Assembly (NCBI GenBank): GCA_963666285.1
Contig: OY762711.1
Strand: one strand, 5' to 3'
DNA from: Sedimentisphaerales bacterium
Lineage (GTDB): Bacteria > Planctomycetota > Phycisphaerae > Sedimentisphaerales > SM23-30
Length of the DNA: 64,000 nt
The notes below the pieces were generated by a model. It saw nothing but the letters and a program-made list of their open reading frames with translations. It was not told the DNA's origin and did not search any database. Position numbers and translations under genes: made by a program. Below, piece by piece: positions 3,001-46,809 of the stretch (position 1 is the stretch's first letter; every line of letters starts with the position of its first letter).

Positions 3001-6000
3001 TGGAAGCCAAAGATATCATCAACGGTTGCAGATGCCAGCAACTGTTTCTGGCTGTCAGTCAGCAAAGGATCATCAAAACCATTTGACAGGTCGATATAAA
3101 CCGGCTCGGTAATAAAGCCTACCTGACTATCAGTGCCAGAAGTTGTTATTGTAATATTATTGGCAGAAATATTCAGTAACTCTGCAGAAGAACCAGTACT
3201 GCCACGAACATAGGCGTCAGGATAAAGATATTTCATCAGGGACGGAGACAGAACAAAATCTGCACTCTGGAGTTCGCCGTCGGCAATTTTGGCCTGAACT
3301 TCAGGCGTCAGGTCGGCGGTATTAATCACTGAAGATGGGTTATACTGTTCGGAAATACTATCCAGAACAGAACCGGAAATCACATCAAGAACAACATCAC
3401 CGGTTTCAGAAAGAATTGATATATCAACATTATCTCTATACTCAGGCTGAAGCAGGTTAAGATCTCCGGCGACTTCGGTAACATAGATATCACCATCAGA
3501 CAGAACAGACAATCCTCCGGAACCGGCAACATCGCTATCGATCAGAAGCGGCTGAGCAGCAGAACCTACAGAGCCGTTATCAGCATATATTTCAATTCGA
3601 TTACCAGAAATAATCGAGTTCTGATCGTAAGCGATAATACCATCAGGAGCATTAATATAGATATTACCATCAGTAGTGATAGACTCAACACGAAGCTGGT
3701 TGTCATCGCTGCCGGTAGAAATAACGTTAATAACAATATCACCGGTAGTATTGAGGTTAATCGGGTCATGACCACCCTCAACATTTATAACAACAGAACC
3801 TGCCGCCAGAACCGGGTCAGTATCAGCCTTGGAAACTGAAGAAGTTTTTGTAGTACTGCCGGTAATAATTGTCGGTGAAACGCCAAACACCGCTACAGTA
3901 TCAACCCCAGAGATAGAACCGGATTTTGAATTTAAGGTAACACTGCCTTGCTCAGGAGAGGTAATATTTCCCTGCATGTAGATTGACCCGACACTGGTAA
4001 TGTTAATCGAAGGTGTATCAGAGCCATGGACAAATGTAATATCAATCGGATAATCAGCTTTGAGGGCATGCGTATAATAATCTACCTTACCGCTGATCTC
4101 TGTTATCTTGGTATGGACGGTTTTTTTCCTGAGCCAGCCACCGCCGGTAGTCCACTGAACCACACTGTAGGAACTATTAACATAGTCCTTGTCATATTTA
4201 TCTAAAGTCGGATCTTCGAATTGATCGCCAACAACAACCCCATTAGGCGTCCATAGAGTAGTATCAGTAAAATCTACGGTAGATAACAATACACTATCAA
4301 TCTGTTCGGTACCGGTAAATTTATAAACAACAAAGTTGGTATCTCTTACCTGGGTAACACCCGGTACAAGGTCTACCCCGGTATTGTCCTTCTGCTCGTA
4401 ATCAATGGCATACACGGTACCATCAGCATAGTCAGGCATCTCACTTGTACCAGCCATAACCAGTGATTCAGATTCAAGCAGCGGCTGACCGTCAATATAT
4501 TTAGTTACCTGCCAGGCATAACTGTTATCCTTACTGAGCCAATCAGCGAGGGCATTATCACCGAAAAGGTTGAAGCTGTTCTTTTCATACTTAGTAACAG
4601 TAACATCAAGCAGTTCCTGCCCCTCGACCCAGACATAATACAGGCCTTCCCTGGTTTCATATTGAATACTATCATTTATGCCATGAGTTGCAGAAGCGTT
4701 TTGGTCAAGTGTGTAGCTGATGGTAGAGACAATACCACCTTCAGAAGAGCCGGTGGAAGTCTTTTCGCCATTATATACATTTTCCAGGACAGTATCACCG
4801 CTAACTACATATTCGGTTTTGACAAGGGTAGCAGTATCAATAATAGTAATCTTACCAACCCGGTCTGTTGTAGTATCAATTTCACCAAGTATAAGCTCAT
4901 AGGCACTATTGTTAACAATTTCGACACTGGTATAGCCATGAGCAACACGGATTTCGCCGTTGCCAGTACTCATTATCTGACCAGCCAGAGTGATATTGCC
5001 ACCAGCTGGAATAATATCGTCAAGTACGATAGCCTGCTTAGCAGCATCGAAATAGCCATCAACCGGAACATTATACTCACCGAAAGAAAGGCCATCCAAA
5101 GCGTTGCCTTTGGCATCTGTGAAAGTAACAGTCTGATTGCCAGGATTGAAATCAGCATCAATAGTAAGAGTGATAGTATCAACACCACTCTGGATCAAGC
5201 CGTTAACATTGAGATAACGAGCGGTAATGGATATGTTACCCTGGGCTAGGATAGCCGAACTGCTCTGGTCAATTGCATCATCCAGCCCGGAAACACCACC
5301 GGTATAACTATAATATGTAATTGGATCGGAGCTGTTGTAGGCAGATTCTCTGAGTGCGGTATAGTCGATATACTGGCGAGGATCGCTGCCAGTATGGAGC
5401 CAGTCGTCCGAGTTCAGATTGAAATCAACACCAGCATGGATTTCAACCTGCTCAGCCCTAATTTCGCCATTTACGTTAATACTACCCTCAACATTACTGA
5501 TATATACATCACCATTTTCATTTACTATATCACCGGTAACATAAATATCCTGACTGATAGAAGGCAGATCAAGACTGCCCAGATCATAAGCACTTGCACT
5601 ATAAGCATCCTGATTAACAGTGATTTCCTTGACGGTATCGGTATCGGTAACACTGGTAAGCTGGTTGTTATTGACATAGACATTACCAGGCTGCTGAACG
5701 GTAAATATACCATCAATAATAGTAACTTTCTTATTATCGCGGATTACAGTATCATTCAGCGACATGGTAAACGGAGTCTTGTTGAGTATCTCAATCTGAG
5801 CCCCGCTGCGAGCAACAAGCTGAGTGCCAACAAGATAGTCGTAGTCAGAAGAATCCTTGCCGTCAACATCAATAAAAATTGAGCCCGGTACAGCATATAT
5901 TTCCGGCAGCTCAATAAATACTGTGTCAAGTTCGGTATTAATAACAGTCGTGGTCTGGCCGTTACTGGTAACGGTTTCAAGCAGGCCAAGATCAGTTAGA

Positions 6001-43278: not shown

Positions 43279-43910
43279 TTATTGGTATGCCTCAATGGCA
43301 CCGGCAACTCCCGTTATAACCATCTGGACACCAATAACACCAAGAATTAGCCCCATAATACGCGTAATTACGCTTAGCCCGGTCTCGCCGAGATATTGGA
43401 CCAGACGCTCTCCGTATATGAAAAACATATATGTTATCCAGCATAATACTCCGAAGGCCGCGATAGTAATCAGCATCTCCACTATCCCTCCTGAAGCCGT
43501 ATAGTTCATGGTCGTTGTAATTGTACCCGGTTCGGCAAGAATAGGCATCGCCAGGGGAGATATTGCAATACTAAGCTTCGCCTCCAGGGACGACTGCTGA
43601 CCAGTACCCGGCTGATGGACCGGTGATTGCTCGCCATGCAGCATATGATAACCAATCAACACCACTAATCCGCCGCCCATAATCCGAAAAGCCGGTAGAG
43701 TAATACCAAACAAATGGAAAATCAACTTACCCATCAAGGCAAAAAAACAACTATAATAAACGTATAAATAAGGGATTTAGCAGCAATAGTTTTTCTAACC
43801 TGGCTTGAGTCATCAGAAGTCAATCCTAGAAAGATTGGTGTGTTTGCAATTGGATTCATTATTGCAAAAAATCCCATAAATACCGATAGAATATGCTGTA
43901 TTAACTCCAT
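43279..43910 (-). pseudogene. marC: MarC-family membrane protein, frameshifted in a homopolymer (A7 at 43741-43747 on +)
   Basis: ATG 43910 gives MELIQHILSVFMGFFAIMNPIANTPIFLGLT... and hits TGA just after the T run. One extra T restores VVFFALMGKLIFHLFGITLPAFRIMGG...SPLAMPILAEPGTI...RIMGLILGVIGVQM. Confidence 0.85.
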
Positions 43911-43949
43911 TGTTTTACTTTACTATAACATATTGTCTGAAAAATAGTT

Positions 43950-44321
43950 CTAGTCACCCACCAACGGCCTGACCTTCTCTACCTTAAAGTACACGGCACT
44001 GCCGGCTGTACCACATTCTTCATTATGTCTTTTACGCCTTCTCAAAGATTCGACAAATTCAGGATCATTATCCTCTTTTATCTTACTGAGATACAGCCGC
44101 TTTCCCTTATAACCATCTGCATCTTCAATAAACATATATGATGCCTGGGGATTAGCCTGCAAATTGGAATAACTCAGCCTGTTAGCCATTATCAGCACAA
44201 TAGTTTCGTCATCGACAACATGCGGGCGGGCATACAACGCCTGGTCAACTTCTCCATCTGAGTTAGAAGTCGCCAGTATCCCAATGCCTTTCAACGATTC
44301 AAAATATTCAGATAAATTCAT
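43950..44321 (-). CDS. Pyridoxamine 5'-phosphate oxidase-like FMN-binding split-barrel protein
   Basis: GILATSNSDGEVD..YARPHV, SYSNLQANPQASYMF, YKGKRLYL, VEKVRPL; AAGGA RBS. Confidence 0.8.
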   Translation of the reverse strand: MNLSEYFESLKGIGILATSNSDGEVDQALYARPHVVDDETIVLIMANRLSYSNLQANPQASYMFIEDADGYKGKRLYLSKIKEDNDPEFVESLRRRKRHNEECGTAGSAVYFKVEKVRPLVGD

Positions 44322-44497
44322 ACTGTTATTCCTTTACGAAATTCCATATTAACGGTTCATTACACTGTCCATTTTGATTGTAGAGCCAAACAAATGAATA
44401 TTTCCATTAGTTTTTAGAAATAATTCAGCATTACATAGACATGAATATTTGTCACCTTCTGTAAAATTCAGTAAAAAGATAAGGAATATTGTATAAT

Positions 44498-44703
44498 GGG
44501 CAGGAAGCCATATATCTGGTAGTAAACCTTAACCAGTAAGACGTACAGCTGTGGCGGGCCGTTCTTGCACAATAGCACTTCTTAGTAGCTGGCAATTTAA
44601 AAATAATATTTTCACTTTTTTCCCCACGCCTGGTGCTTCAACATGGGTTGTGGTCGCACATGTTATACTCCCGGCAGAGTTGATATATCCAGCTTCACTG
44701 CCC
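44498..44703 (-). ncRNA. Putative ~206-nt structured RNA immediately downstream of the DIP1984-family gene
   Basis: Ends pair: 5'-GGGCAG(U)GAAGCU(GG)AUAUAUC with GAUAUAU-GGCUUC-CUGCCC-3' (about 19 bp). Several nested internal stems; no credible ORF. Confidence 0.62.
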
Positions 44704-44709
44704 GTATCA

Positions 44710-45165
44710 TTACTTCAATTCAGTATGCCAGTTACATTCCTGTATTTTGCTGTCGAGCTGACGATACTCCTTGGCAACGTCATCGGCCATTTTTCGAATC
44801 TGGCTTATTTCTACATTTGGAACGTCTCGAATTTCTCGCTGGCTGTAACGGTCATTAGTAGGTGTCGCTTTGTCGGCAAGATTAGTTAAAATGAAATGAC
44901 GATAATTCAGCATATCCTTTTTGACGATGGCTTCCATCATACTCAAATCTTCGGTAACAAATGCAGCATTATTAGTTCTATTTATCCTGGCGACCAGCTG
45001 TTCAAACTTTACGCTCTCCTTTTTAAGCTCGGCAATCAACTCCAGTGGGTTTTCAATCGCCTGTGTACCCTCCTGGATTTTGGCATTCTGATATATACGC
45101 TTTTTCAACTCCTCCATTTTCGTCTTGATGGCCTTACGTTCAATCAAAGCTTCTGCTAATTTCAT
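44710..45165 (-). CDS. DIP1984-family helical/coiled-coil protein of unknown function
   Basis: Starts MKLAEALIERK (ATG 45165 preferred over track GTG 45204); NAKIQEG..IENP, RINRTN, RYSQREI, YRQLDSKIQECNWHTELK match the family pattern as I recall it. Confidence 0.82.
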   Translation of the reverse strand: MKLAEALIERKAIKTKMEELKKRIYQNAKIQEGTQAIENPLELIAELKKESVKFEQLVARINRTNNAAFVTEDLSMMEAIVKKDMLNYRHFILTNLADKATPTNDRYSQREIRDVPNVEISQIRKMADDVAKEYRQLDSKIQECNWHTELK

Positions 45166-45178
45166 ATAATCCGTGTTT

Positions 45179-45207
45179 TGCTCACGCAGAGCAAGGGCTC
45201 GCACCCT
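45179..45207 (-). promoter_or_regulatory. Tandem hairpins in the 5' leader of the DIP1984-family gene
   Basis: AGGGU-GCGA-GCCCU (GNRA tetraloop) directly followed by UGCUC-UGCGU-GAGCA, ending 13 nt before the ATG; a GC-rich patch in AT-rich DNA. Confidence 0.5.
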
Positions 45208-45514
45208 GATAAATGTTAATATTGAACCAAAAGTTTATCTGAAAAATCCTGATTAACCAGTAAAAAATTATTTCCACATTCAACTAATTCTAACAAAAAG
45301 AAAATGCTGTGTCAAACCATTCCTGCACTGCATTGGACGCAGGATTATGCCCCAACGTGATGCAAAAATCCAGTTCTACAGTAATTTTCCCTCGTTTTGA
45401 AAACTGAGATATAGGACAAGTGCTGATAACCTACCCTGTTTTACAAAAAATGCACCACTTGGCCTTATTCACTAGTCAAATATTCAATTTCTTAACCGCA
45501 CTGATATTATTGAG

Positions 45515-45548
45515 AAAGAAACCTGACATATACAATTCAGGTTTCTTT
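45515..45548 (-). terminator. Inverted repeat just after the PEP-CTERM gene stop
   Basis: AAAGAAACCTGA-N10-TCAGGTTTCTTT, perfect 12-bp stem. Confidence 0.65.
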
Positions 45549-45551
45549 ATT

Positions 45552-46349
45552 TTATACTTTAATTCTTTTTCTGATAAGTATTCCCCCTGCGGTCATCAAA
45601 ATAATACTCAGAGGCTCAGGTACAACATATGCTATTCCTCTAATATCGAGATCGGGGGCTTCGATTCTAGTACCAGGAATAGCAAGGCCGGTACTAACAT
45701 CTACCTCAACAAAAATATATTCCCTTTCTTTGTTATCATTGTTATAATCCGAGCCAAAAGCAAAAAGTCGACCATCAGGCGTAAAGGCAATGGAATATAC
45801 AGAAGTCAAAATAGGAACATTTGAATTACCAACTTGAAATGTCTCTCCTGTTTCAGTATCAATTGTAAAAATTTTACCTAATGCCGTTCCATATAATACT
45901 CCTGTTGGACTAAAGTCTAAACCTTGGCATCCTCCAGTATCTGTAAAATTAGAAATTTTACGAAATGTGCTATTTTCTAAATCTATTACTCCCAATTCGT
46001 GATTGGATTTGACTCTACATACAAAGAGTTCATTATTACTATTAAATGCCATAGCACGGATAGGATAATCTGCAAAATCGCTTAAATTAGTATAATATTG
46101 CGTATCTCCAGTATATGGGTCTATCTCGAAAAAGCCTTCATTATATGAATCACAATAATATTTCCCATTTGGGGCCTGAGCTAAAGAGTTCAAGCCAGGT
46201 GGTAAATCTGTTCGAACCTGAACTGCCTGACCAAGCTCAGTATCTATGCGTACAAACTCACCATCATAACTAACACCAATAAAAATTGACGCAAATCCAA
46301 GGTTGTATATCAACAATAAACTTAAAATAAAATACTTAACCATATTCAT
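45552..46349 (-). CDS. PEP-CTERM sorting-domain protein with beta-propeller-like repeats
   Basis: Signal peptide; blades SLAQAPNG, AMAFNSNN, GLDFSPTG, SIAFTPDG; C-terminus VPEPLSIILMTAGGILIRKRIKV. Start could be 46355, 46349 or 46343. Confidence 0.88.
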   Translation of the reverse strand: MNMVKYFILSLLLIYNLGFASIFIGVSYDGEFVRIDTELGQAVQVRTDLPPGLNSLAQAPNGKYYCDSYNEGFFEIDPYTGDTQYYTNLSDFADYPIRAMAFNSNNELFVCRVKSNHELGVIDLENSTFRKISNFTDTGGCQGLDFSPTGVLYGTALGKIFTIDTETGETFQVGNSNVPILTSVYSIAFTPDGRLFAFGSDYNNDNKEREYIFVEVDVSTGLAIPGTRIEAPDLDIRGIAYVVPEPLSIILMTAGGILIRKRIKV

Positions 46350-46809
46350 TCTCACTTCTCTTGAGAGTTAAATTCAATAAAAGCTGATTTCCTCTATATA
46401 AAGCATTATACCAAAGTATAATAGACTTTAAAATAAAGAATCTGAAGGGTAAACAAAATAGTCACGTTCCCTTTTTCTTAAAATTCGATACTACAAGCAT
46501 TTACACTTACCCTATGTGCCAGATTTCAGACATTGCTTCATACAAACATACTGTAATACAATTTGCTATATTAACATTAAATACCTGCCGCTACGCGGCT
46601 TTTCTTACCTGACACCTTCCTTTCAACATCCACCACATAATACCTCATACCAGTACAAACTAACCAGCGAAATATTGGGCAAAATGACATATAGACAAAT
46701 GGCTCTAAATATAGATAATTTAGTAAGAATTTTTTTTTAAGATTTTGTAACTTTATATACCAAAGTAAGTATAATATAAAAACACTTATTTGGCCGTGGA
46801 GTAAAACAA

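Follow-up and report, generated by a model that had tools for sequence, protein, structure and literature searches.

A structured RNA behind a DIP1984-family gene in a planctomycete is a distinct, reduced subtype of a widespread gene-RNA module

Introduction

What is the long folded segment that follows a small gene in the genome of a Sedimentisphaerales bacterium (Planctomycetota; GenBank assembly GCA_963666285.1, contig OY762711.1), and does it belong to that gene? The stretch of contig analyzed here, which we call the window, is 64,000 nucleotides (nt) long. On its minus strand, a gene of the DIP1984 family ends in a TAA stop codon at 44712-44710, and the folded segment runs from 44703 to 44498. 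A sequence-only reading of the window had proposed that the gene carries a large structured RNA at its 3′ end, closed by a long outer stem and perhaps excised from the transcript to partner the protein. We find that the RNA is real, conserved and covarying, and that it represents a distinct subtype inherited with one protein clade. Here, we describe this RNA and its relatives, and weigh what the gene and the RNA might do together.

Results

A single-copy fold closed by a long helix

The outer stem is present as proposed. Inverted repeats join 44498-44503 to 44698-44703 and 44510-44516 to 44682-44688, and with GAAGCU/GGCUUC pairing between the two repeats they form a closing helix (P1) of 19 base pairs (bp) that contains a 1-nt and a 2-nt bulge. 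A 223-nt stretch has a minimum free energy (MFE) of -67.9, compared with -54.6 +/- 4.7 for its shuffles (z = -2.82), and the exact 206 nt have an MFE of -66.2 (z = -3.40). None of 200 shuffles in the first case, and none of 100 dinucleotide shuffles in the second, folded as well, which bears out the fold that had been placed 6 nt after the TAA. Nor is it an intrinsic terminator: as the sequence-only reading held, there is no U tract, and we detected 0 terminator-like sites in 43900-45700.

The RNA is likewise not a genome-wide repeat or a miniature inverted-repeat transposable element, as it has a single match in its 6.35-Mb genome. We found no tandem repeat inside it; the interval 44498-45400 holds just one two-copy 10-mer, which lies outside the RNA. 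Searches of Rfam 15 gave no match at gathering score across the window and none at E <= 10 over the locus. Base composition gave no sign of an island, and the DNA of the 3.1-kb region had no match in 12 related genomes.

A related RNA lies behind most DIP1984 genes

Almost every complete DIP1984 locus that we examined carries some form of the RNA. A genome scan with a single protein query returned no relatives; an alignment query found them. Of 521 confirmed loci from species genomes and 498 from metagenomes, we kept the best 80 each; together with five viral loci, these gave 160 in which the gene was located. A profile of the form that we call type A, built from 88 nonredundant copies (alignment A2), matched 143 of these 160 loci at E < 1e-3. 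All 145 type A matches are downstream on the strand of the gene, with a median gap of ~1 nt between stop codon and model. The gap is -3 at both the 10th and the 25th percentiles, and thus the first helix of type A often takes in the stop codon. Among the 17 loci without a type A match, seven are of the window's own type (type B, below), four are cut off less than 100 nt after the gene, three carry variants, two have the RNA upstream by our reading, and one (L088) is without assignment. The three variants (L046, L048 and L065) were found with a covariance model, R1, that was built from 30 type A copies and has 219 positions and 37 pairs (E from 3e-8 to 1e-6). Both loci with an upstream RNA are from Corynebacterium (L026 and L030), where a full type A-like RNA can be read at ~1230-1465, ending ~35 nt before the ATG; R1 matches it in L030 (E = 0.0075) and gives no match in L026, for which the assignment was made by eye. 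In these two loci, the RNA sits behind a -10-like element (TATACT/TATGCT).

Type A begins with an outer helix, GGUAG, a covarying helix and GCGAGCACAA, the AGCAC of which is paired with a GUGCU close to the 3′ end. In the middle, a small pseudoknot (CCC/GGG and CCAAC/GUUGG) is followed by two hairpins, the first variable and the second with a GGGGC loop, and by a T-loop arm (GGGUUCGAnnCCC; pattern GGUUCGAnnCC). The 3′ part runs through GCCCA, CACA-N3-GUAC and ACUACC to the returning helix strands, with a G-rich tail (GAGGGUGGG-N-GGGG) ahead of the point at which the outer helix is closed. The motif that the sequence-only reading had placed behind homologues was roughly right, the conserved core there being GCGAGCACAA-CCC.

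Covariation supports this structure. Across the 40 proposed pairs of A2, 82.7% of cells were paired, compared with 69.9% for shuffled partners and 37 to 44% for slid partners. Double-change cells numbered 455 versus 134 with shuffled partners, and 0 of 500 shuffles reached the observed values. The outer helix is poorly aligned in A2 (about 55% paired). In partner-swap tests, its cognate arms gave -8.2 versus -4.3 kcal/mol for swapped ones; the inner helix gave -13.1 versus -6.1 kcal/mol, with 69 of 73 cognates beating the median swap. RNAalifold on the trimmed A2 recovered just one stem. We rejected a GGUAG/CUACC helix in type A, since by our own reading invariance is limited to GGU/ACC, with uncompensated variation at the other two positions. 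No Rfam family covered the type A element in 38 loci at E <= 0.1. The prediction of a conserved, covarying structure tied to DIP1984 genes was thus borne out by type A in 143 of 160 loci and by the helix tests on type B that follow, and its absence from Rfam was confirmed both in the window and in the loci of 38 relatives.

The window RNA belongs to a second subtype

Ten RNAs make up type B: that of the window and those of L003, L004, L005, L083, L084, L085, L100, L168 and L171. L003, L083, L084, L085, L004 and L005 are the loci with proteins closest to the window's, and L168 and L171 were found in relatives of the L003 genome. We assigned L100 by eye, and measurements cover the nine other sequences, the window's included. 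The nine RNAs are 193 to 263 nt long, their scored closing helices start -3 to 13 nt past the stop codon, and the helix scores range from 9 to 25. The closing helices are unrelated in sequence, with 5′ arms that are 31% identical on average. Nevertheless, each arm fits its own partner: cognate arms had a mean of -39.7 kcal/mol, compared with -17.2 +/- 3.9 kcal/mol for 70 non-cognate pairs, and the cognate was best in its row in nine of nine cases. For the window the margin is small (-26.5 kcal/mol for the cognate duplex versus -25.6 kcal/mol with the L168 arm), because the two share end sequences. All ten type B RNAs beat 100 dinucleotide shuffles, with z-scores from -3.4 to -8.1. In the MAFFT alignment of type B (A3), register shifts at P3 and in the outer part of P1 defeated a count of pairs column by column, and we relied instead on the partner-swap test and on hairpin tests of each sequence. 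Between L003 and L168, which show 22 differences over 212 columns, one compensatory pair of changes (G>C and C>G) keeps a helix.

Inside the closing helix, the first part of type B is a hairpin of the form ACUC-loop-GAGU, the stems of which are changed in L084 and L085. It is followed by a GGCGAYC-like motif (GCGACCACAA in the window, 44657-44648) and then by a hairpin (P3 in the window) with a GC[CA]-containing, AAGCC-type loop, which is present in nine of nine type B RNAs with differing stems. The P3 strands of the window are CCCAUGUU (44647-44640) and GGCGUGGG (44630-44623), and 0 of 200 shuffles match their score; in the other type B RNAs, the score of this hairpin was reached by 1 to 10 of 200 shuffles. 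In L005, the hairpin chosen by the script is GC-rich and is not the one read by eye. The remaining order is an AU-rich peripheral region, an AAGAA motif, GCCC, CACA-N3-GUAC, UACUACC and the closing strand. The A..ACC within UACUACC corresponds to invariant columns A181, A184, C185 and C186 of A3, and its counterpart is invariant in alignments A2 and A4. A profile of the nine type B sequences matches 44703-44498 of the window at E = 1e-32, the window being among the sequences from which it was built. The window RNA has the closing helix, both hairpins, the AAGAA motif and UACUACC that define type B, and is a member of it. A search upstream of type B genes returned no conserved motif.

Two type B cases deserve a note of their own. 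The Riflebacteria genome that holds L003 (G061) carries two diverged type B modules, on contigs C37 and C63, with 63% and 57% protein identity to the window. The DIP1984 gene of L085 (609-1058) has one in-frame stop, as does that of L116; a pseudogene, recoding or an assembly error could each account for this.

These comparisons revise the interior of the fold as the sequence-only reading had drawn it, in that conserved local hairpins take the place of two of the five inner pairings that it proposed. A long-range pairing of GCCGGGAG with CUUACUGGU gives way to the local hairpin ACUCU-GCCG-GGAGU (44680-44667), which is kept in relatives. The hairpin AACAUG/CAUGUU does exist as an inverted repeat, but it competes with P3 (CCCAUGUU/GGCGUGGG), which is the one used by the MFE fold; nine of nine relatives scanned have a hairpin of its kind in the same region. 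AGCAC and GUGCU are both present; as AGCAC lies in the P3 loop, their pairing would be a pseudoknot with the P3 hairpin, and its support is not significant (-7.2 kcal/mol, with 17% of shuffled loops doing as well). Across type B, downstream pairing with the P3 loop was no better than for shuffled loops in most sequences, and an upstream GGCG-type partner is an alternative. Finally, the suggestion that the AU-rich insert might be variable or guide-like finds no support. L003 and L168 do not differ at any of the corresponding 22 nt, although they show 22 differences elsewhere; in our own reading of the alignments, the insert appears to line up with a peripheral hairpin that bears a similar loop motif.

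RNA subtype follows protein clade

How do the two types relate? A type A nhmmer profile gave no match in the window. Neither the T-loop arm (GGUUCGAnnCC) nor the GGGGC-loop hairpin occurs in 44498-44703, nor was either seen in the other type B sequences read, and the G-rich tail (GAGGGUGGG-N-GGGG) is absent both in and after the window RNA. At the same time, the motifs of the window RNA stand in type A order: a GCGAGCACAA-like motif, a hairpin with GCCAA-type letters, GCCC, CACA-N3-GUAC, A..ACC and the closing helix, all of them short. In type B, the GCCAA-type letters occupy a hairpin loop, and in type A they are part of a pseudoknot strand. Cross-matches are weak: R1 gives a full-length match in L083 (8.8 bits, E = 0.04), and the type B profile matches the type A locus L136 (E = 6e-4). 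In the protein tree, the type B clade is nested among clades with type A-like RNAs. Taken together, type B is probably a strongly diverged relative of type A. A third form of the RNA, downstream of the gene on an 8.7-kb Acinetobacter plasmid, is by our reading also without the T-loop arm, the GGGGC hairpin and the G-rich tail. Because type B and this plasmid form lack all three, these elements may constitute one accessory unit.

The tree itself, a quick maximum-likelihood tree of 161 proteins from which L085 and L116 were left out for the in-frame stop in each, places all nine type B loci that it includes in one clade (Shimodaira-Hasegawa-like approximate likelihood ratio test, SH-aLRT, 99). 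RNA type maps onto it with one label change, and 0 of 500 shuffles were as low. RNA subtype and protein clade are therefore co-inherited, as is expected of co-evolving partners. In the clade sister to type B (L012, L021, L073, L086 and L093), the RNA has another 5′ variant (GGGGUAGCCGGGAGGGCA...), which R1 still matched in both loci scanned, L012 and L086.

A patchy, mobile distribution and RNA-repair neighbors at some type A loci

The DIP1984 gene is present in 1 of 61 related genomes, the window's own. Relatives of the gene occur in many phyla and in one archaeon. It is also found on 369 plasmid records (340 of them from Acinetobacter, many on very small plasmids), with an RNA variant read on the one plasmid inspected, as well as in five phage records and five viral contigs. 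R1 finds the RNA in the viral loci L163 (two copies), L166 and L167. The first of these is a 178-kb viral contig with two type A RNAs (3487-3689 and 4287-4494) behind one DIP1984-like gene.

We surveyed the 150 nearest-neighbor open reading frames (ORFs) of loci L003-L081. RtcB is encoded directly upstream of the gene in L028, L034, L036 and L054, and Ro60 (TROVE/vWA_Ro60) directly upstream in L009, L010 and L062. The latter three (~1215-1475) are Pyrinomonadaceae operons in which Ro60 is followed by YrlA, in one or two copies, and then by the DIP1984 gene with its RNA. The YrlA matches in this position score 69.7, 66.6 and 60.2 bits, compared with a gathering score of 69, and L010 has a second, weak copy far below the gathering score (33.3 bits). 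Because Rfam finds YrlA separately there and nothing on the DIP1984 RNA, the latter is a second, different RNA of the Ro60 operon. L010 also has an AbiV-type HEPN gene downstream of the module. Genes for tRNA were present in 7 of 60 loci, upstream and on the same strand in all seven, with L060 having one downstream as well. Arrays of ten tRNA genes (L016, 80-1337) and of eight (L037, 361-1443), including tRNA-Ile(UAU), stand directly upstream of the gene on the same strand. Other neighbors were unrelated housekeeping genes, e.g., HolC in Pasteurellaceae, and a few defense or mobile genes (AbiV, PIN, integrases, Uma2, transposases and NaeI).

The gene, its protein and its neighbors in the window

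That the gene belongs to the DIP1984 family, as had been claimed, is clear from curated cut-offs passed over full profiles: NF038048 matches the protein at 162.1 bits against a cut-off of 70 (E = 9.4e-48, profile positions 1-149 of 149), and PF20935 (DUF6847) at 154.6 bits against 27 (E = 2.1e-45, positions 1-141 of 141). The mechanical ORF runs from a GTG at 45204 to 44710 on the minus strand and encodes 164 amino acids (aa). Most of the 120 homologues listed are 151 aa long and cover 91% of this ORF, and the proteins of type B relatives begin with MKLAEAL-type sequences. On the basis of homologue length and these starts, the real start is the ATG at 45165, and the GTG lies 13 codons too early. 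The coordinates of the gene and of all RNA parts are given in Table 1. The promoter-like site listed there, ~120 nt upstream of the ATG, is a consensus match, and such sites are no commoner in the region than in shuffles.

Table 1. Positions of the gene, its RNA and the parts of the RNA in the window
Feature	Coordinates	Strand	Basis
Promoter-like site TTGACA, 17-nt spacer, TG-extended TAGAAT	45287..45315	-	11 of 12 consensus positions, TG ahead of -10
DIP1984 / DUF6847 gene, 151 aa + stop	44710..45165	-	NF038048 and PF20935 matches, homologue starts
Spacer, stop codon to RNA, 6 nt	44704..44709	-	sequence
Whole structured RNA, 206 nt, type B DIP1984-associated RNA	44498..44703	-	fold z-scores, single copy, conserved subtype
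Closing helix P1, 5′ strand GGGCAG-U-GAAGCU-GG-AUAUAUC	44682..44703	-	inverted repeats and partner-swap test
Hairpin P2, ACUCU-GCCG-GGAGU	44667..44680	-	in MFE fold; kept in type B relatives
Core motif GCGACCACAA	44648..44657	-	9 of 10 positions as in type A consensus GCGAGCACAA
Hairpin P3, CCCAUGUU / GGCGUGGG, 9-nt loop GAAGCACCA (44639-44631)	44623..44647	-	MFE fold, hairpin scan
AU-rich region	44585..44622	-	least conserved part; aligns with peripheral hairpin region of relatives
Purine motif UAAGAAG, then GUGCU	44574..44584	-	AAGAA-type motif in type B relatives, by reading
GGCCCG and CACA-GCU-GUAC motifs	44543..44560	-	common to type A (GCCCA ... CACA-N3-GUAC)
UACUACC motif, just before closing helix 3′ strand	44518..44524	-	A..ACC invariant in both subtypes
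Closing helix P1, 3′ strand GAUAUAU-GGCUUC-CUGCCC	44498..44516	-	inverted repeats and partner-swap test

The AlphaFold2 (AF2) model of the protein has four long helices, with a predicted local distance difference test (pLDDT) value of 88.9. In sequence, the protein matches Protein Data Bank (PDB) entry 3kdq, an unannotated crystal structure from Corynebacterium diphtheriae, at E = 1.8e-42. Foldseek aligned the model to 3kdq with template modeling (TM) scores of 0.84/0.91 and a root mean square deviation of 1.8 over 151 columns, and a VIA search placed 3kdq at Z = 15.8, with the next entries, generic helical hairpins, at Z <= 9.4. As modeled, the window protein has the fold of this solved family member. 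Beyond 3kdq, fold and family searches returned generic helical hairpins or nothing, and no nuclease-like fold. The best matches of the protein to PADLOC models (E = 0.017) and to PHROG (E = 0.036) were not significant, and the ESM Atlas gave unnamed clusters only, at 0.90.

Nearby in the window (43279-43910, minus strand), the gene of a MarC-family membrane protein is in two overlapping ORFs (Pfam profile positions 2-52 and 57-202), which suggests a frameshift or sequencing error near 43737. A neighboring beta-propeller protein (45552-46355, minus strand) has a PEP-CTERM-like tail (VPEP..., a hydrophobic stretch and RKR).

Discussion

We regard the DIP1984 gene and the 206-nt RNA of the same transcript as candidates for a two-part module, with the RNA as a trans-acting partner of the protein and a role near RNA repair or quality control; belief and doubt in this account are about evenly balanced. 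Transcription from the promoter-like site at 45315-45287 would yield an mRNA with the RNA at its 3′ end, and the RNA would fold into a core held shut by its long terminal helix. Its shape suggests that it is probably released or stabilized as a discrete species, as the terminal helices of type B, 19 to 30 bp in length, resemble double-strand-specific processing stems. The four-helix protein would then bind the RNA via the invariant unpaired motifs GCGAnCACAA, GCCC, CACA-N3-GUAC and A..ACC. Such a particle would most likely handle damaged or misfolded RNA, because type A lies repeatedly behind RtcB, behind Ro60 with its Y-RNA-like YrlA, or at the end of tRNA arrays. As the window subtype is without the T-loop arm and the G-rich tail, both of these would be accessory and the shared core would carry the basic function. 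A more ambitious reading, which we offer tentatively and consider less probable than its opposite, is that the module is a self-contained, horizontally mobile ribonucleoprotein (RNP) and an unrecognized part of bacterial, archaeal and phage RNA-damage responses, acting beside RtcB and Ro60/Y RNA as, for example, a sensor, decoy or scaffold for tRNAs that have been cleaved and for other broken RNA. If so, type B would be a natural "minimal" version, and arm and tail an exchangeable accessory domain on a conserved core.

Several observations weigh against the preferred account of a trans-acting partner. Joint inheritance of a gene and an RNA does not mean that the two are in contact, and the fold of the protein is a generic four-helix bundle for which fold searches returned no known RNA-binding relative. 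Only type A loci supply the RNA-repair context, and these belong to few lineages (mostly Acidobacteriota, with one Paenibacillus), in which kin are not independent. In the window itself, the neighbors (a PNPOx-like gene, the split MarC gene and the beta-propeller protein) are unrelated to RNA repair; the RtcB gene of this genome is 2 Mb away, and the genome, which is 97% complete, has no TROVE (Ro60) match. Homology between types A and B rests on position, shared short motifs and the two weak cross-matches, as R1, when run with filters off in a 1-kb search, had a best match over the window RNA of 1.3 bits (E = 0.14). The model starts at the stop codon in at least a quarter of its type A matches, which also fits a purely cis-acting role. 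Last, the L085 RNA looks intact despite the in-frame stop in its gene.

The cis-acting role just mentioned is the alternative that we take most seriously, and we still think it unlikely. Here, the RNA would stay on the mRNA as a 3′ element that controls the stability or translation of the DIP1984 message, through feedback by the protein or by blocking 3′ exonucleases, with no function in trans. The placement of the RNA suits such an element, given that it begins 6 nt past the stop codon in the window, that many type A RNAs begin at this codon or within it, and that no separate promoter or terminator-like site was seen between gene and RNA. However, known stabilizing stem-loops need far less than an RNA of ~200 nt that has several conserved hairpins, a pseudoknot and invariant unpaired motifs, to which type A adds a T-loop arm. 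Furthermore, the RNA is upstream of the gene in two Corynebacterium loci (in L026 by eye only), so a role at the 3′ end is not general, and one viral contig has two RNA copies behind one gene. A nonfunctional origin (a chance fold, an odd terminator or a repeat element) can be set aside with near certainty. The z-scores of the window alone, from -2.8 to -3.4, are moderate, but a single-copy RNA with no U tract or terminator-like site, whose helices covary in relatives from other phyla, refutes it on comparative grounds.

Another explanation, which we hold to be improbable, is a selfish or defensive toxin-antidote module in which a harmful protein is checked by the RNA, as in type III toxin-antitoxin systems. 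This would explain the patchy, mobile distribution, with the gene in 1 of 61 related genomes, 369 plasmid records, five phage records and five viral contigs, and the occasional defense or mobile neighbors (AbiV, PIN, integrases, Uma2 and transposases). Yet the protein has no significant PADLOC or PHROG match (best E values of 0.017 and 0.036) and no nuclease-like fold, the RNA is a single complex fold downstream instead of tandem repeats upstream, and many loci are chromosomal with conserved housekeeping synteny, such as HolC in Pasteurellaceae. Lower still we place an RNA that is active alone, as a catalytic RNA, a decoy or a sensor for tRNA-directed enzymes, with the protein a mere chaperone or unrelated. 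Invariant unpaired junction nucleotides, the type A T-loop arm, the location near tRNA arrays and the intact RNA beside the interrupted L085 gene all fit this idea. Against it, subtype and protein clade change together, the window subtype is without the tRNA-like arm, and L088 is the sole complete locus in which no RNA was found among the 160 loci, which were chosen by gene, with RNA-only copies not sought.

An RNA of ~200 nt with its own partner gene, present in many bacterial phyla, an archaeon, plasmids and phages, appears to be uncatalogued and unstudied. The structure is new to the catalogs searched, and the window holds a distinct, reduced subtype of this widespread gene-RNA module. Large conserved RNAs of this kind have usually proved to be ribozymes, riboswitch-like sensors or cores of RNPs. 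In full-text literature, with supplements and subscription journals outside the scope, we found no description of a DIP1984 gene-RNA pair, the gene occurring as an annotation only. In the parts of the literature available to us, work on RtcB, Rsr, YrlA and tRNA-like RNAs comprised Y RNA and Rtc operon papers only, and there was none on septicolysin with a small RNA (sRNA). "Septicolysin", a label attached to plasmid copies of the gene, implies a thiol-activated cytolysin, and a 151-aa, all-helical protein seems unlike such toxins. A gene-RNA module would correct this misleading virulence-factor label. One study treated a plasmid copy as a putative cytolysin on the basis of the name (PMC5559437).

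The association with RtcB, Ro60/YrlA and tRNA arrays offers an entry to an open question, namely, the targets of bacterial RNA-repair operons. In addition, the window subtype has neither tRNA-like arm nor G-rich tail, which leaves only a few motifs for the essential core and provides a natural structure-function comparison.

Among known systems, the closest is Ro60 with YrlA (RF02553, rsr-yrl-rtcBA), in which a dedicated structured RNA likewise stands beside the gene of its protein. Type A adds to the resemblance with its tRNA-like T-loop arm, its presence in the same operons in L009, L010 and L062, and RtcB upstream in four other loci. Unlike that system, the window RNA is not RF02553 (it has no Rfam match), has no T-loop arm and is in a genome in which no Ro60 was found, and the DIP1984 protein is a 151-aa helical bundle and not a TROVE ring. 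The window protein clearly belongs to DIP1984 / DUF6847 (3kdq, function unknown), whose family entry is without mention of an RNA. Type III toxin-antitoxin systems (ToxIN, CptIN and TenpIN) also pair a gene with a structured RNA in a compact mobile unit on plasmids and phages; theirs, however, is a tandem RNA array upstream of an endoribonuclease that cuts the array, whereas here a single fold lies downstream. RNAs that are excised by way of a helix (rRNA precursors and RNase III sites) and sRNAs from mRNA 3′ ends are similar in that ends joined in a 19- to 30-bp helix stand behind a coding region, although processing would here be deduced from shape only. Last, raiA, OLE, GOLLD, ROOL and HEARO share with the DIP1984 RNA its size, an elaborate conserved structure, a sporadic spread, occurrence in phages and proximity to tRNA genes. 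In contrast to these, the DIP1984 RNA matches no Rfam family and has a nearly obligate, single partner gene.

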